A stretch of 64,000 nt of DNA. It comes from Patella caerulea (Eukaryota). The translations under genes and the position numbers were made by a program. The notes beneath the pieces were generated by a model that was given only the letters and a program-made list of their open reading frames with translations, made no database searches and was not told the origin of the DNA. Each line of letters opens with the position of its first letter. Positions within the stretch are counted from its first letter, which is position 1. Shown here piece after piece: positions 10,919 through 54,182 of this stretch. Location: positions 6,726,208 through 6,790,207 of the forward strand of contig JAZGQO010000014.1 in the NCBI GenBank assembly GCA_036850965.1. The letters are read 5' to 3'.

Positions 10919-11145
10919 GTAAGAATTTATTACTTCTGAAACGAAGATACAGAGTTGGAAAAAGTATTTGAATCTGGTAATGTACTTCCAGAAACGTTTT
11001 TGGAGACCGTTTCATTTCAAATTTTGTAAGCTGTGAAATAAGTATAGAACTCTAGATAAAATTCAAGTTATCGTGATTTACCAATAAAATTTAATATTCT
11101 TCCAAGTTCCATTACAACAGTTAAAGCTGAGCTCTCCATATACAG

Positions 11146-12172: not shown

Positions 12173-12359
12173 AGGTAAATAATCAGAAACCAATAGCTAT
12201 CATAAAGAAGGCATTTTTTATAAGCTGGGTTCATTTTTTTATTCCTAGCATTTGTAATTGGCTAATCCACATTACACACATGTTCATCAACAGATAAATA
12301 AATACCAGTACTTCTACATATATTTATATAATTTATGACTTTAAATCAATTTGTTTCAG

Positions 12360-12485
12360 CTTACAGACTCAAAGACACAATCACAGTACTTTTCTGTTGT
12401 TGAACTTCATGTACAGACAGTTAATAAAGATGATGTATGCCAATACAGAATATTTACCCATGCTGGCAAAATACAGGGCCAAGAG
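12360..12485 (+). CDS. PARP4: PARP4-like exon 3
   Basis: Acceptor tttgtttcAG, donor GTATTC. Same frame as ORF 12351..12578 (LTDSKTQSQYFSVVELHVQ...). Phase 0/0. Confidence 0.55.
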
Positions 12486-14206
12486 GTATTCAACATTATC
12501 TTTGTTAATACTGAATGTAATTTATCCATTTTTAGACTGAAAATTCCTTTTAAAGAATCAACTTTTACAATAATGTAGTTTGCAAGGGATTGAAAATCTC
12601 TCAGATATCGATCAGAGGCTTGAATTAATGCATAGTTGTGTTTTGCTATTTTGACCTATGTCACATTAAAGTCCAGATGTGCTATTTGCATTTTCACTGA
12701 AATATAAAATTTCTCACGGCTTATACACACTAAATATGTACTCAGATTGATTATTTAACTCTTAGTTAAGAAAACAAAATCAAAATACCAGTGCTAACTA
12801 CCCGCTTTATAAACACTGAACAGAAAATGAACCAGTTTTGGATTAATATTCGTATTAGATATTCATCTTTCACAAGGAATTCATATTGCTTAAAATGGCA
12901 CATCAGAACTTGGTTACTTACTTTCTACTAATAAATTAGTAGAAATTTGAAGAAAATTAGAAAACTTTCATATTCAATTTTGAATCTATTATTTTATTCA
13001 TGATATTTCGGGCCAGGGCTCGACACTGCTGGCAGCCACGGCGGCCATGGCCTCCGAATTTTAGAATTTGGCCGCAGATTCGTGGCCAATTTTCAATTAT
13101 CCACGGCCATGTATGGCCGCCGATTAGAGTTTGGTATCGATAGTTATTCTTACTATCGATAGTCGGCATTGAAGTGTCGATTGATAATATCGAAACAATC
13201 TTATTTTCACGGTCGTAATCAAGGCTGGATGACGTGTTTAAAAGTCAAAACCATACGATGTTTTGCGATAGTTGTTTTTTGCTCGTCTAGTTAATAATAA
13301 ACTGTCTCATATTACGTATAAATTGTACTTAAATTTTTAAATAATGTAGCCGTGGTTCTGAATGACGAAAAACCGTTGATATGCCGATGTATGTGGGGGA
13401 ACCAAAATAAAATGAGCACGATTCGACTCACAGCATTGCGTACGTGAGCGCGACAAATACCAACATGGCGGATAATTCGTTGTCGATTCGCGTGCAAAAA
13501 CTATGGAAAAATGAATTGTCTAAAGTAAGGCTAAAGAGCTTGTTATCATAAATTGTTCATTGAGATTGGATTGAGACTTTGAAATATAAATATAAAGTGA
13601 CCGAAATAGGCTATTGTATTATTATATACGAAGGATTAAGTTACGGAAAACATCGAGTCGACTCCTCAGCCCCCGACGCACGCACGAAAATTAGACGAAG
13701 AGAACGATACTTGAGAGTGCTTTTTGGCATATCTTATCAATACTATCGATTTGTATTGATATTTTACGAAGCTCTACCGATGATATAGTAATACTTTCAA
13801 CTCCTAATAAAAATGCCGATTTTTTAAAAATATTTTTTAGAACAAAAAATCGTACTAAAAACGGTACGATAAGAGTTTTATCCCCCCCCCCCTAAACTGT
13901 AAGGATGCATTATTTTTGTAAAAGTAATAAATAACAACCTGTAACAACCATTTGACTGAGAAAAAAGATCTACACTACAATAAACAGATTAAGCTGATAA
14001 TATAATAATTTATGACTTGGCCTTTGATTTTTAATTTTTGGCCTACGATCAAGGTTGCACTTTGGCCTATCGTAGGCCAATGTTGGCCTTCGATCGAAAA
14101 AACGAATTTCGAGCCCTGTTTCGGGCTATATATATATATATGGTACCTCCTCTTGAATTTTTGTTTTAAATCCCCTGACATAATATTATTCTCTTTCTGA
14201 TTATAG

Positions 14207-14347
14207 GAAAAGGAATGTCGGTTTTGCAAGACCAGTGATGAAGCTCTTCAACTTTATCAATATCTTTATGATGGCTTAATAAACAAGAAATACATTCACA
14301 AACAAGATGGTATACCAAGGGATATTGGTTCACCAAAAGTACAGAAG
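14207..14347 (+). CDS. PARP4: PARP4-like exon 4
   Basis: Acceptor tgattatAG, donor GTAAAT. Encodes EKECRFCKTSDEALQLYQYLYDGLINKKY, resembling human KKTSEDASEYFENYIEELKKQGF. 141 nt, phase 0/0. Confidence 0.6.
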
Positions 14348-14685
14348 GTAAATGTAGAAATTGTTATCTCTGTATGGTAATAATCGTGTTTGAATACTGA
14401 TAAATTATTCCTTTTTTCATAGTAAATGAATATCATTTCAAAATCCAGGTAACTATTTTATGCCATTTCTAGTGTGGTTATCATTCACTAACTGTGTATC
14501 AATACGAAAGACAAAATAGACTAATATTAGTTTATATATTGAATTTTTTTATGTTATCCCCAAAAATACAAAGTTTTCTCGTATAACGATTAATATAGTT
14601 GTTTTTCTTGGCTCATGTGAGAAAAAAAAAACTTTGTGGTGGAGTGTGGACATTATGTAAACTATCATATATATTATTGTTTTAG

Positions 14686-14823
14686 ATTATAGCCTACAGA
14701 AAGACACAGTCAGAACATATTGGTTCCGAGGTAGAACAACTTGTGAACCATGTATGGCAAGAAGCTACAGGACATATAGAAGACATATTGTCAACCAGTC
14801 TAGCAGATCTTCAAATATCACAA
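14686..14823 (+). CDS. PARP4: PARP4-like exon 5 (PARP regulatory region)
   Basis: Encodes VEQLVNHVWQEATGHIEDIL, resembling human VSDLVEMIWAEALGHLEHML. Acceptor ttttAG, donor GTAAAT. 138 nt. Confidence 0.75.
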
Positions 14824-15155
14824 GTAAATATTTATTTTGAAAGGTTTGAATTCTTTCTGGTGAAATATAATTTACTTGTCTCGTGGTCACCCGCAGAACT
14901 AGTTAGATAAGTGTGTTTAGATGATGAAATACATGTACCTAGTTCATTCTACAAATTGGTAATGTGCACAGAGGTTTTTGAGTTGGAATTCGAAAATAAG
15001 ATTAGACTGAGAAGCCAATGTCTGCAAAAAATTAAAAATTACCAAAATTATGTCTTATCCTTAATGAGATAACCCCATTCTACTCCTGAGTGTCATGTCA
15101 AAGACTTTTACTTCTAATATGTATAAAATTAGAATCAATCATTGCTTTTCTTCAG

Positions 15156-15332
15156 ATTGACAAAGCAGATGCCATTTTAGTAGAAATAAAAGATGAATTA
15201 AATAAAACAGCAGATACCAATAAACTACAGACTTTACTTCAAGATTTTTATTCTGCCCTACCCCACCAGACGGAAGGAAAGGAAACTAAACCCGATAGAA
15301 GATGGTTGTCTAATAAACAAGATCTATGTCAG
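15156..15332 (+). CDS. PARP4: PARP4-like exon 6 (PARP regulatory region)
   Basis: Same frame as ORF 15090..15344. IDKADAILVEIKDELNKTADTNKLQTLLQDFYSALPHQ...NKQDLCQ resembles human VSKAEGILLLVKAALKNGETAEQLQKMMTEFYRLIPHK...KKADLCQ. Donor CAG|GTAATA. Confidence 0.85.
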
Positions 15333-15583
15333 GTAATATCATAGTCTTTAAATGCAACTAAAATATATTTCATTCCATTTATTTACTATTTGTTAAAATT
15401 TGTTCAGTGGTTTCTAAGTGAGAAACACTTTTGACATTATTGCTCTGAAAATTTCCAATTAAAGTATAGACTTGTGTATATATATGTTGTTAATAAATTT
15501 GATTGAAAATAAATAGTTTTGTTAATTTATTTGTTAGTATTATATTTCTGTTGTTATATACAACATGTATTATTTTACTGTAG

Positions 15584-15750
15584 TTGTTGCGGGATATGTT
15601 ATCTGTTAATGAAGCCACCAACTGGAGTACAAACAGTTCTCCTGAAGCCAAATATAAAGCTTTACGATGCTATATTAAACATATTGAACCAGGGAAAAAC
15701 GATGTACAGTTTCAAGACATTAGAGAGCAAATTTTAACCTCCTTGGATAG
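15584..15750 (+). CDS. PARP4: PARP4-like exon 7
   Basis: LLRDMLSVNEATNW...AKYKALRCYIKHIEPG resembles human LIRDMVNVCETNL...AKYRALRCKIEHVEQN. Acceptor tactgtAG, donor GTAAGT. Exon ends in phase 2. Confidence 0.85.
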
Positions 15751-16318
15751 GTAAGTTTATATATTAGCCTGATGTGTGTAATAACTAATGTTGTTGCTTG
15801 AGAAATATTACCTCTACTTCATTGTATTTTCTTTTGGTCCCCAACCGTATCATTGACATCTGATCTTGCCACCATTGTAAAGGGATTGTCTTATACTTTC
15901 AAGAAAGGAGTTAATTTGTGACAATCTTGGATTATATTTAAATTAATCCAAAAACTACTTTACAAAAAGTCTGCCTCACACATTGTGATTTTACTTATGA
16001 TATGGCATCCTTACTACTGTGACATGTCACAACACCCACACATGCACCATTGCTCTTCAGTTTACGAGATAATAATCAACTCTTTCTGTGCATCAGGTTC
16101 AAACTCCCCTATTGATAATCCACATGTTGCAATGAAACATCATATGCTACAGTTCAACCTGTTTCACAGAGAATTACTTCGAATTATCCATGTAAAGGAT
16201 GGCTGTCCAAAACAAGTGCGTTGACTTGCACGGCTCGTAGTCATTGGCTCAACGGCTCGTGCAATGTTTACTTAACACCTAACTGCTGGTGCTGTTTCAT
16301 TATTTTGAAATATTTCAG

Positions 16319-16456
16319 TGACACTAAGGTAGAAGTTAAGAAGATCTATGTTATTCAGCGCCCTATAGAAGAGAGTAATTTTACTCATGATTTGTGTCCT
16401 AAACAACTTCTCTTTCACTCGTCAAGGGTAGAGAACTTTGTAGGTTTATTATCAAG
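16319..16456 (+). CDS. PARP4: PARP4-like exon 8 (catalytic domain, contains the active-site His)
   Basis: Same frame as ORF 16221..16460. LLFHSSRVENFVGLLSR resembles human PLLHGSPVQNIVGILCR. Donor AG|GTAATT. Confidence 0.85.
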
Positions 16457-16887
16457 GTAATTATCAGTTATAATGTATTGGAAAATATAATTTCAGGAAA
16501 GACGTCATTATTTAGAATAGATTCACTTCTCGAATACATGACTTGATTTTTTATACTTGGAATTAGACTTTAAAGATATCAAACTTTGATATTTTTCTTT
16601 TGAAAAATTCTTACTTCTGTTCACCTAAATGAAAAGAGGTATATATTTCAATATGCTAATAACATATAGATAATGATGAGAGCACTTTGAATCAAATTTT
16701 CAAAACTTTATAGATTTCTCCTTTCAAACCTATATTTATGATTGATGTTCATGACCTCTCGGAACTATTAATTTTTAATTGGAAAGGTAAAAATAAGCCA
16801 AACATCTTCTTTCCCATTTCTGTATAAATTTTTTAATTTTCAGAGGTCTGTCACTACCCATTTTTGTATAAATTTTTTAATTTTCAG

Positions 16888-16986
16888 AGGTCTTTTACTA
16901 CCAAAAGTTGTTGTTGATGATTATGGTGGAAAAAGAACAGATGCTGGATTATTAGGAAGTGGAATATATTTCGCCAGTTCAGCTAG
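16888..16986 (+). CDS. PARP4: PARP4-like exon 9 (catalytic domain, contains the active-site Tyr)
   Basis: Encodes (R)GLLLPKVVVDDYGGKRTDAGLLGSGIYFASSA, resembling human GLLLPKVVEDRGVQRTDVGNLGSGIYFSDS. Acceptor ttttcAG, donor AG|GTTAGA. Confidence 0.9.
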
Positions 16987-17094
16987 GTTAGAAATATTTA
17001 ATTAGATTTGTCCAAATTACATATGAAGAAAAATAGAAACCAATGACTTGGGGATTAAATCACATATATAATAAAACAATTATATAACGTCCAT

Positions 17095-17300
17095 CTGATA
17101 AATACCTTTCTGAAGCTACCAAATAGTAAGTGCAGGGGGACTGCACCACACACAATTCTACATAAAGACAAACATATGGACAAGACATCATACTCAGAGA
17201 CCACAAACAAAAACAATTCAAAAAGAGTGAATGGATCTGGGGGCTAGCCGCAAGCATCCACCGCGCTGTACAGTCCCGGGCCTGTGGTAACACAGTCTTC
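17095..17300 (-). mobile_element. tRNA-derived SINE, family 1 (box A-like GGGACTGTACAGCGCGGTGG; 3' end ...CTGCACTTACTA)
   Basis: Its reverse complement matches 38695-38890. Partial copies at 52070-52150 (-) and 57150-57230 (+). Confidence 0.65.
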
Positions 17301-18299
17301 ACTTATATTTGAAAACAACTGGGAATACAACCCAAAGAAATAACTCTGTAATGTCAGCATGAGTCATGATCTGTCATATGTTGCAAGAAATATGAATGCC
17401 AGCATATTGTATTAATTCCGCTATACAAGTAACCACACCGTTAAATATATACAAGCTGAACCATTATGTAAAAAGAATTTTTTGATGTTGTTAGAACATA
17501 GGCATACTATTTTCTAAATCTTACAAATTTGTGTTTTTATAAAATGACAATCTATGTCTTATGAATACAATGGACTCTGCCAATTTCGACATCATACAGG
17601 ATCGACACAATATGCTGGATTAGACAGCATGTAAGAATGCTCAATTGTTTCAGTTATACCGGAAGTATTATTGTACGTACGAATACCAGATGTTTTATTA
17701 TAGTGTACCCTCAAATACACAAGAGCTTAAAGATAACACTTTCTGTACATTCAAAAAACAAGACGCAATAACATAACAATATATATAATCATCTAAAGTT
17801 TTATGCTCACAGATAATTGATTGGTGATTTGCTTGTCGGTTAAAACCCACTGATTGAAGGCCGGATTATTCAATTTTAGTTGTACACAAATCGTGTGACT
17901 TGACCGCTGATTGATGTCGTTATTCGAAATATTCTGAATCCAGATTACTCAAAATGTTTTTCATTGAAGTAATAAGAAAATATATCAGATCAGCACATGA
18001 AAATGATAACGGATTTCACAGAATGCTGTCGTATTCAGATGTTAAAAGTGACAGAGTCCACTATATACTGTCAACTGTCAATGCAAGGAAACATTTATTA
18101 GTCTACAGTATATGTGTAAGCCGCTAATCACAAAATTACATTATTTTATAAATGGTCATCATTAGGGGATCAACCATATATTTGCTATGATTTATTAAAG
18201 CGAGCCAAAGGCTTCCTAGTTGTGCATTTAGGTCTGTGTAGAAGTATTTGTCTGTTTAATATATGTTAATACAGTGTGTATAATGTATTTATGTTGCAG

Positions 18300-18483
18300 T
18301 AAAAGTGCTAGATATTCTACTGCTAGTAAAAGTGTAGGATCTAGACTTATGTTGATATGTGAAGTAGCTTTAGGTAGAACATGTCCATTTTATGAATCTG
18401 ATCCCGACTTAAAACAGCCACCTGATGGTTATGACAGTGTCCATGGTGAAAAAAGAAATGTGGATAATGGTTCACAATTTATG
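18300..18483 (+). CDS. PARP4: PARP4-like exon 10 (catalytic domain)
   Basis: Same frame as ORF 18274..18516. RLMLICEVALGRTC...QPPDGYDSVHGEK resembles human RLLLICDVALGKCM...EAPPGYDSVHGVS. Donor ATG|GTAAAA. Confidence 0.9.
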
Positions 18484-18904
18484 GTAAAAGATTGTTTCCA
18501 TTTGCATTTTAAATGATGATGTTATTTTTAATGATAGTATATAATATATAGGTATCTTGCTGGAAACATGTCTTTGACTTCTATGTATGGAAGACAATTA
18601 TTGTTCACAGCTGAATTCCATAAAGTTTTGACACACAAATATCAGCAAATATCAGACGCACAAATGTCAAAAGAAATAAATTTTTGATTCAGACTGATGA
18701 AGCGTAGCCGATATCACAAATTTAGTCTTGGTCTTTTAATCACACAAAATTTGTCTGATATTCTACTAGCATAGGCTTTAAATACTTGTTAAAATATCCC
18801 CAAGGGGAGACATGATTTTTAACTTTTGACTAGAAGTTACCATTTGATATGATTAACACATTTGGTCTATATTAGTTTAAATGTATTGGGTTTTTTTAAC
18901 ACAG

Positions 18905-19064
18905 GATAATGAATATGTTATATATAATGTAAAACAACAACGTATAAAGTATCTGGTAGAATTTCAACTGCCAGGTGATACTCCTGATTACAACTCTTTA
19001 ATGAACGCTGAAGACAATGTAGCGGAAGAAATAAAGGAGACCATAACAAAGATTGATGATATAG
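18905..19064 (+). CDS. PARP4: PARP4-like exon 11 (catalytic domain, contains the active-site Glu)
   Basis: Same frame as ORF 18881..19141. DNEYVIYNVKQQRIKYLVEFQLPGD resembles human DDEFVVYKTNQVKMKYIIKFSMPGD. Acceptor acacAG, donor G|GTACAG. Exon ends in phase 1. Confidence 0.9.
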
Positions 19065-19377
19065 GTACAGTCTTATTTATAGTTTTTGATCGCCATTTTA
19101 GCGATTTTGAATCCCTTGCACACTCCATTATTTTGATGTAAACAAAACATCTGTGACCCATTCAAAAACGGTTAAATTCTGTTTGTGAAGTATTAACCAT
19201 GATATTATGAATGAATTGAAAACTTGGCAATGTCCAGCAAGAATTAGATGGGCAGCAATAATCCATATCGCATTGAAGTAATAAAAAAAAACATCATCAT
19301 ATTTTCATAATTTCCTTCTTGGTGATTGAAAGCATCTTCATGGTTTTTATGATTTTGAGTTGTTTTTTTCTTTCTAG

Positions 19378-19508
19378 TGTTATCCGACATACAAGATATA
19401 AAAAATCCTTTAGATAAGGTTAAAGCTGGATTGATATCTACTACAGATCAACCAGTGGATTTAAAATCGGTTCATATCAGAGCTAAATTACTAGATTTAG
19501 CTGTCCAG
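19378..19508 (+). CDS. PARP4: PARP4-like exon 12 (start of VIT region)
   Basis: VDLKSVHIRAKLLDLAVQ resembles human VPLEDVHIKGRIIDTVAQ. Acceptor tttctttctAG, donor CAG|GTAATT. Confidence 0.75.
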
Positions 19509-19734
19509 GTAATTAACAATTGCAGAGTTCATTATTTTGAATGACCTAATGTGAACAAATATTTGTCAAAAAATAAATGCAACAATATTATTGAAACAAA
19601 ACTATGACATGAAATATAGTAATTAGCGCAGCCAATGACAAAATGAAATGAAATTTAAATGCTGTTTAATGTCCTACTGCTCTGCTCCAACTTGGCTAAT
19701 GAAGACAGGCTTACGCCATAGATTCTACTATGAG

Positions 19735-19850
19735 CGAAAAGACAAGGGGAATCACGCCAAAAAGTCATGATGAACTTTCTCGGCCAACACAAGGATCGAA
19801 CCAACGTCTTACTCACTTAGCCACCGTGGCTCCCACAGAAATGACAATCC
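19735..19850 (-). mobile_element. tRNA-derived SINE, family 2 (A box TGGCTAAGTGAGTAAG, B box GGTTCGATCC, conserved central domain GAAAGTTC..GA.TTTT)
   Basis: Its reverse complement shares the B box and central domain with 21340-21480, 32110-32230, 53460-53590 and 60360-60540. Confidence 0.6.
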
Positions 19851-20070
19851 GCGAGTTAAAAAAGTTTTCAGTCTTGGTAAATTCATAGGCTATCATGATA
19901 GATAGTCTATTAAATGACAGCTGTATTTAGTGAAAAATTGAAAGTAGCTTTATTTCAAACTTGGAAAAATGTAACGAAATAATCTGTTTACATTAAAAGT
20001 TTCAGCACTAAATAGTCAGCCATTTTGAATTCATCACCAAAATTGTTGACCGTTTTAATGTAATTCCTAG

Positions 20071-20298
20071 GTGACAGTTTTACAAGAATATTACAACAGT
20101 AGTACAGATAGCTCTCTAGAAGCAAAATATGTATTTCCATTAGATGATATGGCTGCTGTTTGTGGTTTTGAAGCTTTTATTAATGGTAAACATATTATTG
20201 GGGAAGTAAAAGAAAAGGAAACAGCTAGGAAAGAATATAAACAAGCTATAAGTGAAGGTCATGGAGCTTATTTAATGGACAGGGATGAAGAAACTCCA
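20071..20298 (+). CDS. PARP4: PARP4-like exon 13 (VIT domain)
   Basis: ORF 20071..20334. KYVFPLDDMAAVCGFEAFINGKHIIGEVKEKETARKEYKQAISEGHGAYLM is near-identical to human KYIFPLDDKAAVCGFEAFINGKHIVGEIKEKEEAQQEYLEAVTQGHGAYLM. Donor CCA|GTAAGA. Confidence 0.9.
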
Positions 20299-20664
20299 GT
20301 AAGAATTTATTTTCTTTTAATGATGATTTATTGAATATAAGTAAGGATTGTAAAGTTGTTAGACATTACTTTATGAGTTGTAAATGTAAAAATGAAGAAG
20401 AAACAGAAAGAGTAAGGTCTAATAAGACTTAGAATAAATCACTAAAAGAAATATTCCAGTAAATTCGGTTTCTAACCAGGTGTGATTGTCAAACTTACAT
20501 AGCAATGTAGTAATGTAGTATGTCTGTTGTAGATCAACAATCTCTCTAGGGTATGGTCTGTTTTCTCAGGTTGATGCAATGATATTTAAATCACAGAACA
20601 ATCTCCGTGTCATATGAAAGATTACATTACTTTTTACAGATGAAGTTTTGTGATTTGTTTTCAG

Positions 20665-20829
20665 GATGTTTTTACTGTTAGTGTGGGTAATTTACCACCT
20701 GGAGCCTGTGTTCTTATTAAGATTGTTTATGTTGCTGAACTACAAGTAGAAGGTGGAAAGATCAGTTTTAGATTACCAGGTAGTGTGGCACCATGGAAAC
20801 ATGATTCTGCTATTAAAGATCATACACAG
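20665..20829 (+). CDS. PARP4: PARP4-like exon 14 (VIT domain)
   Basis: Same frame as ORF 20650..20844. DVFTVSVGNLPPGACVLIKIVYVAELQVEGG...VAPWKHD resembles human DVFTVSVGNLPPKAKVLIKITYITELSILGT...VAPWQQD. Donor CAG|GTATGT. Confidence 0.9.
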
Positions 20830-21126
20830 GTATGTGAAATGTAATTTATGTTAAACACAGGTAAGTGTTTGCTGAAATGGGTTTTGGGATTGCAAAGTTG
20901 TTGTTTACTGGTAATGTTTAATAACATGCATTCCATTTATCTATGTATTGAAATAAATTAGTATGCAAAAAAATATAATGCATATTCAGAACACCTGTCA
21001 ACTGAGGAAGGAACTTTAGTGATTAATGATAGCATGATTTACATGTTATACTGACAGATATGATGTGAAAAGTGGTGAAATTGTTTTTTGGGTTTTTTTT
21101 AATTGCTGATTGGTTATGTTTGGTAG

Positions 21127-21240
21127 GATGAACTAGATACAGTAGCTGTAAAAGAAGAAGAAACAACACTACAGATTGCTGTTGAAATGCCGTTTGATAT
21201 TGTAACAATAAACAGCCCTTCTAATAGAGTTAGAATAAAG
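21127..21240 (+). CDS. PARP4: PARP4-like exon 15
   Basis: DELDTVAVKEEETTLQIAVEMPFDIVTIN... resembles human ...KQSFSLTMSIEMPYVIEFIF.... Acceptor ggtAG, donor AAG|GTAGCA. 114 nt. Confidence 0.75.
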
Positions 21241-21339
21241 GTAGCATTATAGTTAGACTTCAATTAGAATTATTACTATGGTTTATAAAGCCATAATATA
21301 ATCATTAAGTTTATTGTGTTGTGTAATGCATTTTGGTCC

Positions 21340-21480
21340 ATTACAAAATGTGACTCGGTGTGGATTTCAAGCTGGCTAACTGTCATGAGGTCCCAAGGTC
21401 GTTCACGACGTTGACCGAGAAAGTTCCTCTGGATTTTCCAGCCTTGTTTCTTCTCTTGTCAGTGATGCAAGGCAAAGAAA
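21340..21480 (+). mobile_element. tRNA-derived SINE, family 2 copy
   Basis: ggtcccaaggtcgttcacgacgttgaccgagaaagttcctctggattttccagccttgtttc. Confidence 0.55.
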
Positions 21481-21569
21481 AAGTGTCTAGTCATTCAGGT
21501 TTGATGTGAAACTGAGGTTCATCCACGAGCATATAAATGAACTCTTAACAGTTATTTGATAAAGAGTAG

Positions 21570-23160
21570 GTGAAAACCTCACTGTCTAAGCAAAATTTCC
21601 TTCCTATGCCCATTTTTGTCCCCCGCCCTTTCGAAGAAAGTTGGGGGACTATTAAAATGGGTTCGTCCGTCCGTCTGTCTGTCCGTCTGTCTGTCTTTCA
21701 CACTTTTTGGGACACAATAACTCTCTTCCTAATTGAGCTAGAATGTTCAAACTTGGTGTATGTGTTTATTAGGTCAATGCCCTGATGGAGTTCGAAGATG
21801 AGCATTTTCCGCTTAGGGTAAGCAGAGATAAGCAATTTGATTGGTTGATGCTTTGGGACACGATAACTTTGGTTCTAATTAAGTGAGATTGATGAAACTT
21901 GGTGTATAGTTTCATTATAGTAATACCTTGACTAAGTTCGATAATGAGCATTTTCTGCTCAGGGTAAGCAGAGCTATACGCAATTTGATTGGTCGAGAAT
22001 TTGGAACACAATAACTCTCCTTCTAATTGAGTTAAAATGTTCAAACTTGGTGTATATGCTTATTAGGTCAATGCCTTGATGGAGTTCGAAGATGAGCATT
22101 TTCCGCTTAGGGTAAGCAGAGATAAGCAATTTGATTGGTTGATGCTTTGGGACACGATAACTTTAGTTCTAATTATGTGAGAGTGATGAAACTTGGTGTA
22201 TAGTTTCATTATAGTGATACCTTGACTAAGTTCGATAATGAGCATTTTCTGCTCAGGGTAAGCAGAGCGATACGCAATTTGATTGGTCGAAACTTTGGAA
22301 CACAATAACTCTCCTTCTAATTTAGTTAAAATGTTCAAACTTGGTGTATATGCTTATTAGGTCAATGCCTTGATGGAGTTCGAAGATGAGCATTTTCCGC
22401 TTAGGGTAAGCAGAGATAAGCAATTTGATTGGTTGATGCTTTGGGACATGATAAATTTAGTTCTAATTAATTGAGAGTGATGAAACTTGGTGTATAGTTT
22501 CATTACAGTAATACGTTGACTAAGTTCGATAATGAGCATTTTCTGCTCAGGGTAAGCAGAGCGATATGCAATTTGATTGGTCGAGACTTTGGAACATAAT
22601 AACTCTCCTTCTAATTTAGTTAAAATGTTCAAACTTGGTGTATATGCTTATTAGGTCAATGCCTTGATGGAGTTCGAAGATGAGCATTTTCTGCTTAGGG
22701 TAGGCAGAGATAAGCAATTTGATTGGTTGATGCTTTGAGATACGATAACTTTAGTTCTAATTAAGTGAGAGTGATGAAACTTGGTGTATAGTTTCATTAC
22801 AGTAATACCTTGACTATGATCGATAATGAGCATTTTCTCCTCAGGGTAAGCAGAGCGATAAGCAATTTGATTTGCCGAGACTTTGGAACACAATAACTCT
22901 CCTTCGAATTGAGTTAAAATGTTCAAAATTGGTGTGTATGCTTCTTAGGTCAATGCCTTGATGGAGTTCGAAGATGAGCATTTTCTTCTTACGGTAGGCA
23001 GAGATAAGCAATTTTTGGATGACACTTCGTGTTCAGTTTGATTGGTCGATACGTTTGAAGAAAATAAATGTGCAATTAATTAATATGTGTCATCTATTTA
23101 TTTTGGGATTTCGGCGGGGGACATCAGCTTCACTGTTGGCTTGTCTTAAACCCTGTTGGT
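21570..23160 (+). repeat. Satellite-bearing element in the PARP4 intron: about 5 tandem higher-order units of 294 bp (two 147-bp subunits each)
   Basis: Repeated minus-strand ORFs start at 21769, 22063, 22357 and 22651, giving an exact period of 294. Flanked by a left end with gtccgtccgtctgtctgtc and a right end (23040-23150) homologous to 4100-4214. Related monomers at 50830-51110 and 52200-52330. Confidence 0.85.
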
Positions 23161-23277
23161 GCACAAAATAGGATGTAAAAACTCAAAAAAATAATTCTAT
23201 TTTTGAATATTAAATAATGAAAATTTGAAGGTTTTTTCTCTGATGTGCATTGATGAGTATGTCCTTCTTGTATTTAG

Positions 23278-23415
23278 AAAACAGCAAGTAAGGCAGTTGT
23301 TGAAATGTGTAAAGGAGAAAATATTAGTCAAGGTTTTCAACTTTTGATTGGATTAGCCGAAATACATGTGCCTAGAATGTGGGTGGAACAAATGCCAAAT
23401 GATTCAGAAAATCGG
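23278..23415 (+). CDS. PARP4: PARP4-like exon 16
   Basis: KTASKAVVEMCKGENISQGFQLLIGLAEIHVPRMWVEQMPNDSENR resembles human RTDCKAVISTMEGSSLDSSGFSLHIGLSAAYLPRMWVEKHPEKESE. Donor CGG|GTACGT. Confidence 0.8.
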
Positions 23416-23558
23416 GTACGTTATTATTTTTTTTAACCATTTATAGTTTATTTTTATTTTTTCTCAAACTAAAATATTCCTAATTCAACTAGCATCCATT
23501 TAAAAAAGAAGACAAAGGACCTGAAAATATCCATTTTCTTTAAATTTCAATTTTTCAG

Positions 23559-23745
23559 GCTTGTATGTTGACATTTTTTCCGGAGTTCGAAGCTAATGAG
23601 GAAGAAGAAACTGAGATAGTATTTATATTAGATGTATCCAACTCTATGTCTAATGAAGGTCTACAAGATGCAAAGAAGATTCTGTATTTAACATTGCATC
23701 ATTTATCTGATAAAACCTATTTTAACATCATAGCTTTTGGTACAG
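23559..23745 (+). CDS. PARP4: PARP4-like exon 17 (start of vWA domain, MIDAS-like DxSxS)
   Basis: Same frame as ORF 23565..23792. ACMLTFFPEF...EIVFILDVSNSMSNEGL...NIIAFGT resembles human ACMLVFQPDL...EVIICLDCSSSMEGVTF...NIIQFGTG. Donor CAG|GTATGT. Exon ends in phase 1. Confidence 0.9.
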
Positions 23746-24604
23746 GTATGTATCATCAAATCTCAGATCCTATTTACCAGTCATATCTCTAACATTGAAA
23801 TGGTATCATAGTACGAATACTTAATCATTAGTATAGCCCCCTAAAAGTAGAAGCTGAATTAGTTTGTTTGTTTTACAGTTTGTATAAAGTTATTCCAACA
23901 TTTCATCTTCATCCCATTTTATGTTTTTGTTACTCATCTACTTCATCAATCCACTTGGTCTATAGACATTTCTTAAGACATTTGATCAACAAGCCAAACA
24001 ATATCAATGGTATTATGGACATCTACAGCCTATAATTTGTCTTTCTAAAACATATCTTCAGATGTTTATTGAGTGACCATCCCAAAAATAATTTATATTT
24101 GATTTAAATTAAATTAATTTGTATTATCTTCTTCTGATTTCAAGAAGAACTGTCACCTGCACCACACCTGGAGTCGACAAGAAAAGATAACTGTTGATTT
24201 TTAACAATTTCTAGATGTAGATCTAGATTAGAAGGAAATTATTCTCTTCTATAAGAAGTCTAAAAACAAACCATCTAGAAATCTCTTGTTTAAATCTGAT
24301 TTTGATAGGTTAATATTTCAAGCCTCAACTGAACAAAGGTCACATAAATTTGATAATGCAGTTAGAGGTTTTAACCTTAATCCTGTGTTAATTTATTACT
24401 TTCATGACACAAACATTTCAATTAATTTTACAGTGTATATATGATGTCATGCAATTTTAACACTATTTTCTTCTAGTGTTTATGGAGAGAAATTGAATTG
24501 TATGAAACTCCACATCTGTTAATATTTTTTAATATTATCTTGTATTCACATTATTTCATTTATATTCATTTTTGAAGAATTTTATAATTGTTTATATTCA
24601 ACAG

Positions 24605-24678
24605 ATTATGAAGAATTATTTCCATGTAGCCAGAGAAAGACACAAACAGCGATTGAAACTGCTTATAGATTTATTAAG
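24605..24678 (+). CDS. PARP4: PARP4-like exon 18 (vWA)
   Basis: Acceptor attcaacAG, donor AAG|GTACAT. Encodes (D)YEELFPCSQRKTQTAIETAYRFIK, resembling human YKELFSYPKH.... Phase 1 in, phase 0 out. Confidence 0.6.
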
Positions 24679-25324
24679 GTACATAGTATGGATGATATTT
24701 TACTCTGTGTTTGAATTATCTTTGTATAATACCATATTCAGTAATATTTAATTTAATAGAATCTGAGCATCCTAGAATTCACTTTTTAATCTGCTCTTAA
24801 CCATAAAGAGGAATTTTCACTTTTATTAACAAGATCAAAGTAATAAACATATATATACATAGTATTGCATCATAATTATGACTGAGGTATTTATTGAAAA
24901 TCCGAGCACTGAGGTATTTATTGAAAATCCGAGCACTTATGACCTACTAAAGGTCATGTATTTTGTATTTATTTAAAATCCAAGCACTTATGACCTACTA
25001 AAGGTCATGTATTTTGTGTGAATGTACTTTAACCTCCTGAAAATCATCCAATATAATTCGTAAATTGACAGTTGAAGTGTCTCTATCTCAATGATGTTTT
25101 GACTGATTAATTGATCTAATATTTTTTCTTATTACACTCTGATTTGAACATCCTTCAAGTGTCTCTAATATTCAAATTAAGTTACCGCTACATGCTTTTT
25201 ACCCATCCGTAAAGACTATTGAATTTCTGGGACCTTAACCAATCTTTATGTGTTTCTGTGTGTATACATGTACTACTATATTAATTATCTCTTCATATTT
25301 GTTGTATCGTTTGTTTAATTATAG

Positions 25325-25512
25325 AAATGTGTTGCTAATAAAGGAAATACAGAATTATATGAGCCATTACACACTTTACATCTATTACAATCTACAAGTG
25401 GTGTTAGAAATGTTTTTGTTTTGTCAGACGGTCATATTAATAATGATGATGCAGTGTTAAATTCAGCTCTGCTCAATTCTAAGCATACCCGTATATTTAC
25501 CTTTGGGGTCAG
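25325..25512 (+). CDS. PARP4: PARP4-like exon 19 (vWA)
   Basis: VRNVFVLSDGHINNDDAVLNSALLNSKHTRIFTFGV resembles human SRNILLVSDGHLQDESLTLQLVKRSRPHTRLFACGIG. Exon ends in phase 2. Confidence 0.85.
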
Positions 25513-25958
25513 GTTGGTTTTTCTTTTATTTCCCTTATTTCTTTGGAGTCAAGGGTGGTGGGTGGTATAGTGAGAAAAATAATAATTCTAGTGCTTGAGA
25601 TTTCAAGTGAGAAAAGTAATCACTCTAGTGCTTGAGATTTTATGTGAGACAAATAATCATTCTACTGCTTGAGATTTTAAGTGAGAAAAGCTGTCAAAAC
25701 TAAGATTCTTGCATCATTTATTTGCAAAGTTATTACTCCTGTTATCTAATCTCAGTTGCTCTTGCTTGTTTTTTGTTTTTTAAACGAGACTTTTTAATCA
25801 TCGGTAATCATTCCTTCAAAAAATTGGGAAAGTCATTTATTTAAAATTTTTGTAATGTCAAAATTTAATATATATATTTTATTTTTTAAATGAAAATAAT
25901 TAAGTAAGACATTTTATTTCATTTCATTTGTGATATTACCCCGGTATATTAATTTCAG

Positions 25959-26058
25959 TTCGACAGCGAATTTTCATTTGTTGCGTGGTCTTGCTAGAGT
26001 TGCTGGTGGAGCCTATGAATATTTTGACAGAAAATCTAAATCTAAGTGGGAAGATAAG
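25959..26058 (+). CDS. PARP4: PARP4-like exon 20 (vWA)
   Basis: (S)STANFHLLRGLARVAGGAYEYFDRKSKSKWEDK resembles human STANRHVLRILSQCGAGVFEYFNAKSKHSWRKQ. Acceptor aatttcAG, donor AAG|GTATAT. Confidence 0.8.
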
Positions 26059-26392
26059 GTATATATATATAATTTGTTTGCACTCTGACCTTCAACAATA
26101 TCTGCTGTTAACTATGTGAACAAAAGAGCTGTGTCAGTTGGCATTAGAAGTAAATTGTTTTTGTGAAACACTTACTTTCCTACCCACAGTTTTCATCAGT
26201 AATCAGTTTGTCTAATACATAATTTTTTGTAGTTTCAAAAGAGGGACGTCAAATTGTAGACGTACATGATTACAATATGGTCAAAGATAAATGCAAAAAT
26301 TGTAAACACAGTTTTCATTCAGTATTCTTGACATTTCTTTTTCTTATTAAAATCAGACTTTTGTGGGTTGAAAATATGTCTTTTTGCTGCAG

Positions 26393-26563
26393 ATAAAACA
26401 TCAATTAGAAAAAGCTGTTCAACCAAGTTTGACATCTGTGTCTGTGGAATGGCAGCAGTTTGATGATAATTTACCTGAACCTGTTCAAGCTCCAAGAAAA
26501 ATCACTGCCTTGTTTAATGGATCACGACAAGTGGTTTATGGTTTTGTTCCTAATTGTACCCTG
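26393..26563 (+). CDS. PARP4: PARP4-like exon 21
   Basis: Same frame as ORF 26384..26629. SVSVEWQQFDDNLPEPVQAPRKITALFNGSRQVVYGFVPNCTL resembles human SVSVKWQQLNPDVPEALQAPAQVPSLFLNDRLLVYGFIPHCTQ. 171 nt. Donor CTG|GTAAAT. Confidence 0.9.
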
Positions 26564-26902
26564 GTAAATACTTTGATATTAATGCAGATAGTAATAGATG
26601 TTCAGATATTCTTATGTTACCATAAATGAATACATACATGGCATTCTTTAATTTAGCCCGATATTGGATAGATCAACAGTATATATAGAATCTAATACAA
26701 TTTAAAAAAGAAACTGCTGATCTATTGCATAAATAAAATAATAACAGCTTATTCATTGAGCCATTTTACATTTGATTTATTTAGCAACAAGGACTCAATC
26801 AAATCTGAATTATTATATGAAATTTAATATTATTTTCACCAAGTTGTAAATGAGAGAAAAACAAAGTAGCCAGTCTAATAATTTGTTTTTTATGTATTGT
26901 AG

Positions 26903-26983
26903 GCCACTTTAAAGGCCGTAATTGATGGACAAGAAGTATCAACTGTTGTATCTACACCTGAACTAAATATAACAAGAGGCCAG
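26903..26983 (+). CDS. PARP4: PARP4-like exon 22
   Basis: ATLKAVIDGQEVSTVVSTPELNITRGQ resembles human ATLCALIQEKEFRTMVSTTELQKTTGT. 81 nt. Donor CAG|GTAAGG. Confidence 0.75.
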
Positions 26984-26989
26984 GTAAGG

Positions 26990-27230
26990 AATTTTAACAT
27001 TTGAAAAAGGAATTTTAACATTTAAAAAAAGGAATTTTAACATTTAATAAAGGAATTTTAACATTTAAGAAATACATTTTAAAAAAGGAATTCTATTGTT
27101 TAAAAAAAAAGTGTAACATTTAAAAAATAAATTGTAACATTTAAAAAATAAATTGTAACATTTAAAAAGGTCTTTGACATAAAAAAAGGGATTTTAACAT
27201 AAAAAAAAGATTTTTTTTTAATCTTTTAAA
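26990..27230 (+). repeat. Minisatellite, unit of about 24-26 bp (aaaaaggaattttaacattta), about 9 copies, starting 7 bp after the exon 22 donor
   Basis: Direct reading: ggaattttaacatttgaaaaaggaattttaacatttaaaaaaaggaattttaacattt.... Confidence 0.85.
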
Positions 27231-27443
27231 AAAGACATTTAATGTTATTTCTTAGTCCCTCACTGGTATATTTCCATTAAAACCATAATTATCTCAATTA
27301 AACATGTATGATGGTACATACATTTATTATCAGTCACTGTGTGTAGGGTTTATTTAATCTTGTTTCTCAGCATTTTACTATCTCATTTTCTATTTTTAAG
27401 AATATATTTCGTAATACCACACCAATTTGAATTAAAATTACAG

Positions 27444-27524
27444 ATACTGCATAGATTAACAGCTAGAAGTATTATCCGTGATTGGGAGGATGGCATGTTA
27501 TCATCAGATAAAACAGATCATGAG
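27444..27524 (+). CDS. PARP4: PARP4-like exon 23
   Basis: ILHRLTARSIIRDWEDGMLSSDKTDHE resembles human MIHKLAARALIRDYEDGILHENETSHE. Acceptor attacAG, donor GAG|GTTGGA. 81 nt. Confidence 0.85.
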
Positions 27525-27908
27525 GTTGGATTTTATTGAAATTTATTGTGTAAAATTTGGTAACCAGAAAAATGCTACTTCTGTCTCTGTAACTTTGTGA
27601 ACATGATGCTGGGTGAGAGTAAGGCCCAGGATTTGATCCTGGCGTTTTTTCAGAAAGAAATTTTGAGATATTGACTCTTATGTCGGTGGCAATCGAACGT
27701 CTAAGTTCCCATGTATACCATTGGCAGTACATTAATGACCTTATCCAAATTCAAAGTAAGAGAAGACCTTGGCGCTGCTGTCCAGGAAAAATCTGCCTCA
27801 TAATGTATGCCTGTCTTTATTGGTCCTGTGTATACAAGACATTGATAAAGCAGTGAGACATTAAAACCCAATGTCATTTCAGACTTTTTTCATTGAAATC
27901 CCTTTCAG

Positions 27909-28010
27909 GTTATTAAAAGAAACTTAAAACCATATATTATTGAACTGAGTAAAGATTATTCAATAGTTACACAATTTACAAGTTTTATAGCTGTAGAGAA
28001 AAGGGATGAG
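27909..28010 (+). CDS. PARP4: PARP4-like exon 24
   Basis: VIKRNLKPYIIELSKDYSIVTQFTSFIAVEKRDE resembles human MKKQTLKSLIIKLSKENSLITQFTSFVAVEKRDE. Donor GAG|GTAATA. 102 nt. Confidence 0.9.
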
Positions 28011-28323
28011 GTAATATTTTATTATTCATTTCATCAACTTTTTGAAGTTTTGAAACTATGTATATCATGCACATATAGTTTGTGAAATTATAATTTTGAA
28101 GATACCATAATATAACTGTATAAAATTTTCTTCTGCATATTTCTCCTGTGCACTAATCAGAATAGGCCATTGGTGTTTATAGCTAGAAGTAATACACATA
28201 CTTTCAAATAAAATAAGGATTAGATGGTTGAATATTTAAGGAACATATTTTTATCAGAAAATAATTTATCAATCATACAACGTCATTTATATTTATACTA
28301 AATCATATATTTCATATTTTTAG

Positions 28324-39525: not shown

Positions 39526-39567
39526 ATGAAGATATGGATTGGACACAAAGTGCAGACTTGTGCCATG
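39526..39567 (+). CDS. PARP4: PARP4-like exon 28 (acidic linker micro-exon)
   Basis: Acceptor aatttatttcAG, donor G|GTAAAA. Encodes (D)EDMDWTQSADLCH. 42 nt. Phase 1/1. Confidence 0.35.
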
Positions 39568-44260: not shown

Positions 44261-44544
44261 GAGATTGTCAACTTCCACAATCTCTTTCATCATGGATGGA
44301 TGGAAAAAAATATGCTGCACCACCTCCCCCACATCCAGTTTCATCATCTAAACCTCCACCACCACCACCACCACCAAGATCTGGGGTTCCGCCTACCCCT
44401 CCTCTACCTGGTGTAGCAGCTGCACCACCAGGACCTCCATCCCCACTCTCTACACCAGATGTTCTCTCTAGAAAAGAAAGAAGAATTTGTGATGAAAGAG
44501 AGCAGTTAATCAAAAACATTCAAGCTGGATCATTACTTGGAAAG
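44261..44544 (+). CDS. PARP4: PARP4-like exon 29: poly-proline tract plus the N-terminal half of a WH2-like motif
   Basis: Same frame as ORF 44296..44565. Encodes ...KYAAPPPPHPVSSSKPPPPPPPPRSGVPPTPPLPGVAAAPPGPPSPLSTPDVLSRKERRICDEREQLIKNIQAGSLLGK. Acceptor aattttgcAG. Donor AAG|GTAAAC. Phase 1 in, phase 0 out. Confidence 0.5.
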
Positions 44545-44758
44545 GTAAACATTTTATACATGTAGTTGTTTTATATTGTATGTTTATTTCAGTAGTGAAT
44601 TCTAAAACGTTCAGAGAACTGAAAAATGGTGAGAGTCAGAAGCATTATTGCAACAAGAAATAGAACTTTACTTACAGGTAGAAAAGTCATGGTTTAATCA
44701 AAGTTAGCATCATTTATAGGATTTGGTTCTTTTATGAATGCTTTTTAAATATCAATAG

Positions 44759-44882
44759 GTTGAACATCAAATACAGGCCAAAATCCCATCAGTTGATGAA
44801 CAAGATGGTTTAGGTAATAGACAGAGAGTTGCTAGAGGTGCAGAACTTTCCAGAAAACAAAGTCAAAAAATTGAAAATCTGA
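44759..44882 (+). CDS. PARP4: PARP4-like exon 30 (completes WH2-like LGKVEHQ; basic/charged)
   Basis: Acceptor atcaatAG. Donor A|GTATGT. Encodes VEHQIQAKIPSVDEQDGLGNRQRVARGAELSRKQSQKIENL. Phase 0 in, phase 1 out. Confidence 0.45.
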
Positions 44883-47313: not shown

Positions 47314-49113
47314 GGGTAATGGAACTGGGAGCTGTAAGAGATAGTATAAATGAAACAGGAACAGATGATAGCATGGATATAAAAAACAAGAAAGGGGCAA
47401 AGGCAAAAAGTAAAAAAAAGAACCAAAGTATTCAACATTGGAAAGATGAGTCAGATTTGATTTCTGACTTTGAAAGGCCATTGCCAACATCAGCATTTTC
47501 ATTTGGATCAAAGCAACCAACAATTTCTGAAAATAAATCTGGATTTAGTGCAGCTACTACAAATAGTGGATTCTCTGGTTTTGGATCAACGGATTTAACA
47601 TTTGGGGTTGGTACTGGCAGTAAATTAATTGAGGAAGAACTTAAAACACCTGACCATGGTCAATTCTCTGATTTTGGATTAAAAAGGACAACAGAACCAT
47701 TATTTGAGGAAGAACCTAACTATTTTTTTCTTCGATCTAAACAGGCTGAATTCTCTGATTTTGGTTCAGAAAGGTCCAAATTTGAAGCTGATATGGATGG
47801 TGAATTATTTGGATCAAAGCAATCAATTATTTCTGAAAATAAATTTGGTTTTAGTGCAGTTACTACAAGTAGTGGATTCTCTGGTTTTGGATCAACAGGC
47901 TTAACATTTGGGGGTGGGGGTAGTAAAGTATTTGAGAAAGAACTTAAAACATCTGACCAAGGTCAGTTCTCTGATTTTGGATTAAGAAGTACAACACAAC
48001 CATTAATTTCTGAAAAGAAATCTGGATTTAGTGCAGTTACTACAAGAGACAGAGGTGGAGGTGGCAAGGTTGGTGGATCAGTTTTTGAAAAAGCTCGATT
48101 TAGTGCAGTTACTAAAAGTGATGGATTTTTCAGGACGACCACGTCAAGTCGTCAAAGTGTATTTTCTGGTTTTGGATCAACAGACTCAACTTTTGCGGGT
48201 GGTACTGGTAGTAAATTATTTGAGGAAGAACCTAAATCATCTAGATTTGATGTAGTTACTAGAAGTAATGTCAAGGAACAACAGTCTACTAATGATGTAT
48301 TTTCTGGATTTAGAGCTACACAGCATTATGTGCCACCACTACCAGCACCACTACCTTCAACACCAACACACATAGCATCAGACCAAACTTTAATTTCAAC
48401 TGCTGCTCTTCCACCCATGCCCGCTCAAATTATGGAACAGCCACCTCCAACAAAAGCAATAACTAGGACACAGCAGGCCCAGCAGGCCCAGCAGCAACAT
48501 CAATCAATGAGAACTGGTATCCATGTCCTCTCAAATACATTACCACCACCACCACCACCACCACCACCACCTGTAGCATTGCCACCACCACCACCACCTG
48601 TAGCATTGCCACCACCACCACCACCACCACAAGGAACACTACCTTCAACCATAACACCCAAATCAGATCAATATGATTGTTTCATTTCAACTGCTGCTCT
48701 AACTTTGAAACCCCAATCCAGAACAATAACTAAAGCACAAAAGCCACAGCAGCACTATCAACTTAGAGGTACCAGTATTCAGCCACCTTCTCTATCAAAA
48801 TCATTGCAACAACCTGCAGTACAATATTCTTCAACTCAATCCCCTACTGCAATACAACTCCAAAGTACACCAGTACCATCAAGTACACCACCCCCACCTA
48901 TTAATGCGCTATCTTGTAGAGGAAGATCATCAGCAACTACATCCAAAATGAAGAAATCTTCTATACCACCACCACCGCCAGTACCAGCATCTATAGATAC
49001 AGATCAGAGTTTACAACTACTAGCCCTATGCAACGCACGTGGTCCTCCATTTACTAGTAGTGAACGTTTTTTAAAAGCCCAACCAGAAGAAATACACAAT
49101 AAATTGAGTACAG
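47314..49113 (+). CDS. PARP4: PARP4-like exon 31: 1.8 kb exon encoding FG-repeat modules, a Q-rich patch and poly-Pro tracts
   Basis: Same frame as ORF 47283..49148 (621 aa). Acceptor ttttatattaaAG at 47312-13. Donor CAG|GTAACT at 49114. Phase 1 in and phase 1 out, linking exon 30 to exon 32 in frame. Holds three modules of about 100 aa each, with the pattern FGSKQ.ISENK.GFSA.TT.SGFSGFGST.LTFG.G.GSK..E.ELKT.D.GQFSDFGL. Then QQAQQAQQQHQ. Then LPPPPPPPPPPVALPPPPPPVALPPPPPPPQG. Confidence 0.55.
47480..48250 (+). repeat. Coding tandem repeat of about 300 nt x2.5 inside PARP4 exon 31 (FG-repeat modules)
   Basis: Near-identical blocks: tttggatcaaagcaaccaacaatttctgaaaataaatctggatttagtgcag... (47500) and tttggatcaaagcaatcaattatttctgaaaataaatttggttttagtgcag... 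(47800), with a partial third at 48110-48250. Confidence 0.8.
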
Positions 49114-49122
49114 GTAACTGCT

Positions 49123-53796: not shown

Positions 53797-54182
53797 GTGA
53801 AAAAGTAACTAAGGATATCATGAATCTGTTGTCAACACTTATAGCTCTGATTCGTATTCTAGAGGATTTATTAAGTCATGTACAGCCTCAAAAGGAAAGC
53901 CCTTCATGGAAAACCCTGCTTCAGAATTCCTCAGATAGAATGTTGCTTATCGATCAGCTTGATTCTAATGATGCCCAAGAAACCTGTGAGTCCATAGATA
54001 AAGCAATACAATTTTACAATACTACAAATGATAAATACCCATTGGTATATTACACACTTGAATTAGGTGATGACTGGATTACTATTGCAACCAAATTGTT
54101 AGGGACATACAGGGCCAGTGCTACTGTTAAACCATGTATGCCGTTAAGGGAGCAGACCTCAGAGGGATGGTGTGTATACTAA
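53797..54182 (+). CDS. PARP4: PARP4-like exon 34, terminal exon with stop codon
   Basis: Same frame as ORF 53820..54182. MNLLSTLIALIRILEDLLSH resembles human LDLIATMLVLQFIRTRLEKEG. YPLVYYTLELGDDWITIATKLLG resembles human YPSICPRLELGNDWDSATKQLLG. Stop TAA at 54180-82. Confidence 0.85.

Follow-up and report, generated by a model that had tools for sequence, protein, structure and literature searches.

A proline-rich tract and a WH2-like signature, probably a look-alike, in the linker-equivalent region of a Patella caerulea PARP4-like gene

RESULTS

A PARP4-like gene and its linker-equivalent region

The window, meaning the whole 64,000-nucleotide stretch of DNA that was analysed, contains a PARP4-like gene on the forward strand. 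Pfam searches of its open reading frames (ORFs) found, in order, a BRCT domain (9758-10204), the PARP regulatory and catalytic domains (15090-18513), a VIT domain (20071-20331) and a vWA domain (23544-25567), which is the domain order of PARP4 (BRCT, PARP regulatory/catalytic, VIT, vWA) on ORFs spanning 9758-25567. When the VIT domain was used as a query, the best named relative was a PARP4-like protein of Crassostrea gigas, with 74% identity over VIT; all matches listed were of 300 aa or less, and no full-length mollusc PARP4 was among them. Beyond the vWA domain, exons at 26.4 to 28.1 kb matched residues 1035-1183 of human PARP4 (E 8e-24). At the other end, the top PDB match of the last long ORF (53763-54179) in a phmmer search was human PARP4, residues 1657-1715 of 1724, a weak match (E 0.034). 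Both the post-vWA segment and the C-terminal domain that interacts with the major vault protein (MVP-ID) are thus represented, the latter by this weak match. A word-indexed protein search with the C-terminal ORF gave no match. The AlphaFold2 model of the C-terminal exon was of low confidence (pLDDT 58), and a Foldseek search with that model was uninformative.

The features used below are as follows.

9758..28082, forward strand: upstream PARP4 exons, with BRCT, PARP_reg, PARP catalytic, VIT, vWA and the conserved post-vWA region (Pfam, human PARP4 alignment)
39526..39567, forward strand: putative upstream exon of 42 nt, ending ..EDMDWTQSADLCH with its final codon split G/GA; flanked by AG (acceptor) and GTAAAA (donor); frame continuous with the exons that follow
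44261..44544, forward strand: internal coding exon, with 19 unremarkable residues, a Pro-rich tract and a predicted helix RKERRICDEREQLIKNIQ-AG-SLLGK
44320..44445, forward strand: Pro-rich tract PPPPHPVSSSKPPPPPPPPRSGVPPTPPLPGVAAAPPGPPSP, 25 Pro in 42 residues
44352..44376, forward strand: (CCA)8 microsatellite encoding a P8 run (Tandem Repeats Finder: period 3, 8.3 copies, 90% matches)
44506..44544, forward strand: first 13 signature residues, LIKNIQAGSLLGK (hhalign register against WH2 alignment A1)
44759..44770, forward strand: signature continued past a phase-0 intron, VEHQ (translation)
44759..44882, forward strand: next coding exon, VEHQIQAKIPSVDEQDGLGNRQRVARGAELSRKQSQKIENL plus a single base A
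47314..49113, forward strand: largest linker exon, 600 codons, part of a 621-codon open frame; acceptor at 47312-13, donor GTAACT at 49114
48540-48629, in the large exon: second poly-Pro block LPPPPPPPPPPVALPPPPPPVALPPPPPPP, built of (CCA)n
53797..54182, forward strand: terminal exon with the PARP4 C-terminal (vault-binding, MVP-ID-like) domain; stop TAA at 54180-54182

Because the flanking exons and ORF match residues 1035-1183 and 1657-1715 of human PARP4, the site falls in what corresponds to the linker of the human protein. The first-pass annotation had placed the two exons at 44261 and 44759 in the linker of a PARP4-like gene, and the Pfam domain order, together with the human alignments on both sides, agrees with it. 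A position of the two exons in the segment equivalent to human residues 1184-1656, inside the PARP4 transcription unit, is supported at the sequence level, and from this we infer that they belong to the PARP4 mRNA. No candidate linker exon resembled human residues 1184-1656 in the alignment to human PARP4. As for overall organization, the region between the vWA domain and the MVP-ID has the makeup of a variable, disordered linker dominated by one largest exon, here of 600 codons and with low-complexity content. This exon matched no Pfam family.

Splice signals and reading frame

The exon at 44261 to 44544 sits in a 112-codon open frame, in surroundings with 36% G+C. Its acceptor, an AG at 44259-60 behind a T-rich tract (tttttaaattttgcag/G at 44261), was rated strong, and its donor is GTAAAC at 44545 (AAG/gtaaac, 44544/45). 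The following exon is bounded by an AG acceptor at 44757-58 (caatag/G at 44759) and a GTATGT donor at 44883 (TGA/gtatgt, 44882/83), and the large exon starts behind an AG at 47312-13 (aaag/GG at 47314). Translation of 44263-44544 on the forward strand gave DCQLPQSLSSWMDGKKYAAPPPPHPVSSSKPPPPPPPPRSGVPPTPPLPGVAAAPPGPPSPLSTPDVLSRKERRICDEREQLIKNIQAGSLLGK, and that of 44759-44882 gave VEHQIQAKIPSVDEQDGLGNRQRVARGAELSRKQSQKIENL. The encoded sequence is the one that the first-pass annotation had reported, namely a Pro-rich tract and then ...EQLIKNIQAGSLLGK/VEHQ, with the phase-0 intron splitting the motif between K and V. If the intron after 44544 were retained (44545-44565), the next codon would still be Val (GTA), which keeps the LLGKV string; the unspliced read-through continues as VNILYM and reaches a stop seven codons on.

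In-frame chaining with the neighbouring exons, also claimed earlier, was reproduced: 39526-39567, 44261-44544, 44759-44882 and 47314-49145 join into 760 codons without a stop. The donor GTAACT at 49114 (phase 1) is in turn frame-compatible with the acceptor of the terminal exon at 53797. The weakest link in the chain is the 42-nt exon at 39526, for which there was no independent support.

Tests of WH2 family membership

The sequence across the splice junction had been described as a near-canonical WH2 motif. Its signature spacing was confirmed by the translation (L1 I2.. I5.. G8.. L11 G12 K13 V14). The refutation test named by the first-pass annotation itself was the Pfam WH2 HMM (PF02205), which has a gathering threshold of 23.1 bits. 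At E values up to 10, this model was silent on peptides of 135, 55 and 47 aa containing the motif, and the description as near-canonical is not supported by it. Control WH2 peptides scored 71.7 bits (N-WASP), 48.0 bits (WIP), 40.9 bits (MIM), 37.5 bits (WASP) and 36.3 bits (WAVE1), with weaker scores for CAP1 (20.9 bits) and thymosin-beta4 (14.1 bits). The G-actin-binding motif of VASP, which has been validated experimentally, gave no Pfam WH2 match either, so a Pfam miss does not exclude function.

A WH2 alignment, A1, was then built and checked as an HMM against the PDB. It retrieved WH2-containing chains only, down to E = 0.03, and these included Spire, INF2, VopL and Cobl, which are absent from A1; human PARP4 was not matched. 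With the A1 HMMER profile the candidate scored 0.7 bits, a value equalled by 10% of composition-preserving shuffles, against 9.9 to 10 bits for VASP and thymosin-beta4 and 6.9 bits for CAP1. A profile comparison by hhalign against A1 gave a different picture. The candidate obtained a score of 18.4 to 18.6 (P 6.8e-4, probability 27%) in the predicted register, and VASP as a control obtained 21.3 (P 1e-4, probability 58%). The candidate outscored all 500 shuffles, of which the best obtained 17.5, as well as all 393 natural 52-aa windows taken from the 64-kb window, where the maximum was 16.65. It was the only WH2-like site counted in the 760-aa linker and the top hhalign scorer of both the window and the linker. 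The candidate agrees with A1 at each of the four invariant columns (L, I, G, L); L82, I83 and I86 are aligned to invariant L and I columns. A home-made HMM of 10 WH2 sequences proved overfitted (candidate at 0.2 to 0.3 bits, matched by 31% of shuffles) and was abandoned in favor of A1. No WH2 chain was found when the peptide was searched against the PDB by phmmer; the matches were chance ones only, to Shroom2, a herpesvirus capsid vertex component and HAP40.

The deviations from the family can be located. In the LKKV-type element, here LGKV, the L, K and V are retained and Gly stands in for the first basic residue, at a cost of about 6 bits in two profiles. The first-pass annotation had named Gly in place of Lys at position 12 as the one departure; an Asn and a Leu deviate as well. 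An in-silico G-to-K variant scored just 16.9 bits with Pfam WH2, still below 23.1. The Pfam seed is reported to have only A, S, Q, D or E before the key Ile (PMC8102491), and the candidate has Asn at this position. The third deviation is a hydrophobic Leu at the normally polar position before the Leu of the LKKV element. Nor were elements that accompany WH2 motifs in known proteins found. Downstream, the sequence reads VEHQIQAKIPSVDEQDGLGNRQRVARGAELSRKQSQKIENLRVMELGAV... and then a Lys-rich patch, with no VCA connector helix and no acidic Trp-containing region or acidic Trp cluster. The LKKT...NDRSAP extension of WIP/verprolin is not present, and the exon has an internal-exon acceptor. With the signature residues present, the profile tests in conflict and the family test failed, WH2 membership is not established at the level of sequence.

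AlphaFold2, run on the 135-aa peptide as a single sequence, predicted three helices (residues 70-87, 90-102 and 110-134), with pLDDT values of 73 to 86 in parts and a mean of 64. An amphipathic helix carrying the key Ile is indicated by the A1 columns and by the first of these helices, which is predicted to stop just before the Gly (G89), as in WH2. AlphaFold2 also rendered SLLGKVEHQIQAK helical, and it is uninformative for motifs that fold only on binding.

How often such a match is expected

Translation of the window in all six frames yielded a single occurrence of the pattern given in the first-pass annotation. When at least seven of the eight canonical signature positions must agree, chance predicts 0.0016 matches in a protein of 2500 aa, 0.08 in the six-frame window and about 10 in a proteome of 1.5e7 aa. 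The match is therefore unusual locally, not genome-wide. The adjacency of a poly-Pro tract makes the conjunction rarer than the signature alone. Matches to the ELM pattern for WH2 have been noted in influenza RNP proteins as well (PMC3371030), so pattern-level WH2 matches are common in unrelated proteins.

Poly-Pro tracts and repeats of the linker

The proline codons of the tract at 44320..44445 are mostly CCA (16), followed by CCT (7), CCC (1) and CCG (1). In the second poly-Pro block of the large exon, a 27-nt tandem duplication was found at 48555-48625, with 2.6 copies that are 100% identical. The (CCA)8 microsatellite behind the P8 run and the perfect 27-nt duplication indicate recent growth of the poly-Pro blocks by slippage, the duplication being a sign of very recent expansion. 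The Pfam family Drf_FH1 (PF06346) scored 17.8 bits on the first tract, below its cut-off of 40, and the tract thus falls short of the formin FH1 family. An FH1 identity was rejected, as the match is compositional only and no FH2 domain was present among the ORFs scanned.

The large exon contains further repeats. At 47502-48203, there are three to four diverged copies of a unit of about 100 aa that is rich in GFSGFG, FSFG and FSDFG motifs (pattern FGSKQxxISENKxGFSAxTTxSGFSGFGSTxLTFG...GQFSDFGL). The exon also holds a Gln-rich stretch. At its start, a Lys-rich patch, DIKNKKGAKAKSKKK (47376-47420), may be a putative signal of the nuclear-localization type.

The introns around the site are also rich in repeats. 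An interspersed repeat with at least seven copies on both strands, at 29809 and 60686 on the forward strand and at 35300, 36281, 36950, 43276 and 46329 on the reverse strand, has an ORF with the core peptide RGHNSGSY[DE]P...VINxHVKFHQNxFK, and its copies fill the PARP4 introns and flanks near the site. In addition, the region from 40330 to 41650 carries an array of similar overlapping ORFs (…PIVWGACPPPRDSATPIFFLC…, …YTLRMxxIVLGxCPxPWDRATPISCISLFVVYRLHFL…), which suggests a tandem repeat of about 280 nt inside the intron upstream of the site.

Related PARP4 sequences

The 135-aa peptide had no relative in a word-indexed set of 5.8e9 proteins. An exhaustive phmmer search of 1.84e9 representative proteins gave only two matches, both spurious and caused by internal repeats. 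Scans of JGI metagenomes found no match to the peptide, and they missed L007, one of the related transcripts described next, as well. As the databases hold few full-length mollusc proteins, little weight can be placed on the absence of homologues.

Related PARP4 transcripts were recovered only as four contigs, L007 to L010, of a single JGI sample. Up to the position corresponding to 28.4 kb they are collinear with the window, and beyond it they continue into an unrelated linker, with poly-Pro at the very end of the contig. These transcript-like sequences (L007:3480-4526, and likewise L008, L009 and L010; sample 3300046527, contigs Ga0499340_165761/65/70/72) have a VIT domain that is 73% identical to that of the window. 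Past the conserved post-vWA region, they encode in frame a diverged C-terminal half of a 14-3-3 protein (Pfam 1.1e-24), a short poly-Pro and a diverged N-terminal piece of actin (Pfam positions 2-64, 2.3e-13). As contigs of a single assembly, the four are not independent, and they are possibly chimeric. The window is without 14-3-3 or actin exons of this type.

A tail of the L007 type was also absent within 10 kb in L011, the genomic locus of a 90%-identical relative. L011 (9000-11446) is a PARP4-like gene copy of the L007-type organism with introns of about 40 to 60 nt, compared with multi-kilobase introns in the window, and its gene match ends after the start of the vWA domain. The genomic loci L001 and L011 reach no further than 10 kb past the VIT exon, and the linker is not included in them. 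The more distant relatives, L002 to L006, have neither poly-Pro nor a WH2-like site.

DISCUSSION

We consider it probable that the Pro-rich tract and the sequence that follows it are a lineage-specific, low-complexity segment of the disordered linker of PARP4 and that the resemblance to WH2 is coincidental. The two exons would then be internal coding exons of an orthologue of PARP4, the vault PARP. The linker to which they contribute would be long, intrinsically disordered and fast evolving, and it would join the BRCT-PARP-VIT-vWA part (enzymatic, ITIH-like) to the C-terminal vault-binding domain. Within it, the Pro-rich tract would be low-complexity sequence made partly by (CCA)n slippage, and its most likely roles would be those of a stiff spacer in the polyproline-II conformation and of a general docking site for domains that recognize proline. 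The amphipathic helix of 18 residues may be part of a short, charged, three-helix segment, and its likeness to WH2 does not seem to go beyond the signature residues L, I, I, G, L, K and V. This reading draws on the expectation that a proteome will contain several matches of such a level through chance alone. As far as sequence comparison goes at present, the resemblance is that of a look-alike outside the WH2 family.

Two alternatives give the helix a function. It may be an interaction element of another kind, such as a coiled coil, part of a helical bundle or a docking helix for a partner of the vault or PARP4, in which case the WH2-like residues would again be coincidental. The three consecutive predicted helices are compatible with such an element, and the best PDB sequence match of the peptide is to a helical segment of Shroom2 SD2 (E 0.24). 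However, all matches were nonsignificant, the structure is a single-sequence prediction of modest mean pLDDT and there were no homologues for an analysis of covariation or conservation, and on this basis we regard the proposal as rather unlikely. It is also unlikely, to judge from the sequence, that we are dealing with a divergent, lineage-specific WH2-like motif that binds G-actin and is preceded by poly-Pro in the manner of Ena/VASP, through which PARP4, whether outside vaults or associated with them, would bind actin monomers or profilin-actin. Several observations are in its favor: the hhalign score, which comes close to that of VASP, is in the correct register and exceeds all shuffles; the rank of the site as the best of the window and of the linker; an amphipathic helix predicted to end at Gly; a poly-Pro located 20 to 50 residues upstream, as in WASP, WAVE and VASP; and a VEHQ tail similar to the VEQ/VEEQ of N-WASP and WAVE. 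Against these stand the negative results with Pfam and with the A1 HMMER profile, the Gly, Asn and Leu at the positions described above and the failure to detect conservation in the protein sets, the JGI metagenomes or L007 to L010. Moreover, PARP4 is tethered inside the vault shell by the MVP-ID (PMC10711553), where actin is an unlikely partner.

The remaining alternatives concern the gene rather than the helix. The exons could be real and yet lie outside the main PARP4 mRNA, in a nested gene on the same strand or in a minor alternative isoform. An in-frame ATG is present at 44296 (MDGKKYAAPPPP...), the upstream link to PARP4 depends on the unsupported 42-nt exon, repeats make up most of the 16 kb from 28.5 to 44.2 kb and frame compatibility with the C-terminal exon has a chance expectation of one in three. 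This arrangement is nevertheless improbable in our view: the exon at 44261 has the strong acceptor expected of an internal exon, the reading frame runs through all four exons, the last of which leads into the PARP4 C-terminal domain, homologues of other gene families were not found and, in vertebrates, the corresponding position of PARP4 is occupied by a long exon that is disordered and variable (PMC4038475). A nested gene of the WASP/WIP family in particular was rejected, as neither a canonical WH2 nor a C/A region was present and the searches found no homologue at all. More speculative still, and in our estimate very improbable, is the idea that the mollusc PARP4 linker is a cassette that gains and loses cytoskeleton-related modules. 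The module here would be a putative profilin- and G-actin-recruiting unit made of the poly-Pro and a divergent WH2-like helix, and those in L007 to L010 would be the captured in-frame pieces of 14-3-3 and actin. If so, the vault PARP would be linked to actin or to host-factor mimicry in a conflict between host and pathogen, of the kind that has been proposed for the linker of vertebrates.

We found no paper that links PARP4 to WH2 in a full-text literature search, in which the two were only incidentally mentioned together. Should the motif bind actin, a vault component, an ADP-ribosyltransferase, would for the first time be tied directly and physically to actin monomers, which would offer a handle on vault function. 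As the evidence stands, a look-alike is the preferred reading, and the site illustrates how easily WH2-type signatures arise in low-complexity linkers.

Compared with the WH2 motifs (PF02205) of WASP, N-WASP, WAVE, WIP and MIM, the candidate shares the signature spacing L-[LI]-x-x-I-x-x-G-x-x-L-x-K-V, an amphipathic helix followed by an LxKV element and a Pro-rich sequence on the N-terminal side. It differs in lying below detection by the family HMM, in having Gly for the first basic residue of LKKV and Asn before the key Ile and in being part of a PARP rather than of a cytoskeletal regulator. Unlike WASP, WAVE and WIP, it is without a C (connector) or acidic A region and without an extension of the NDRSAP type. 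Its closest working likeness is, at most, the arrangement of poly-Pro and a G-actin-binding site in Ena/VASP, judging by analogy. There too, a short WH2-like motif that is invisible to Pfam lies downstream of a profilin-binding poly-Pro, and the hhalign scores are comparable (21.3 versus 18.4). However, VASP retains the basic pair (LRKV), with 9.9 bits in the A1 HMMER test versus 0.7 for the candidate, and the EVH1 domain, F-actin-binding site and tetramerization domain of VASP are absent here. The Pro-rich tract itself is similar to formin FH1 regions (PF06346) in its Pro runs of 4 to 10 with short spacers between them, and the units of about 100 aa in the large exon recall the repeats of FG nucleoporins, with no Pfam family match.

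For the linker as a whole, the nearest comparison is with the region of the largest exon of vertebrate PARP4 (human exon 30). This region is disordered and evolves under positive selection, and both its sequence and its length vary greatly (Daugherty et al. 2014, PMC4038475). The mollusc linker differs from it in its poly-Pro blocks and GFSGFG/FSDFG repeats and has no detectable similarity to the human sequence. The two are alike in lying between the vWA region and the MVP-interaction domain, in being dominated by one very large exon of low complexity and in having a sequence that is not conserved outside close relatives. By this analogy, the linker of the window fits the vertebrate picture of a fast-changing PARP4 linker, and such a rapidly changing, repeat-driven linker would now be seen in an invertebrate too.
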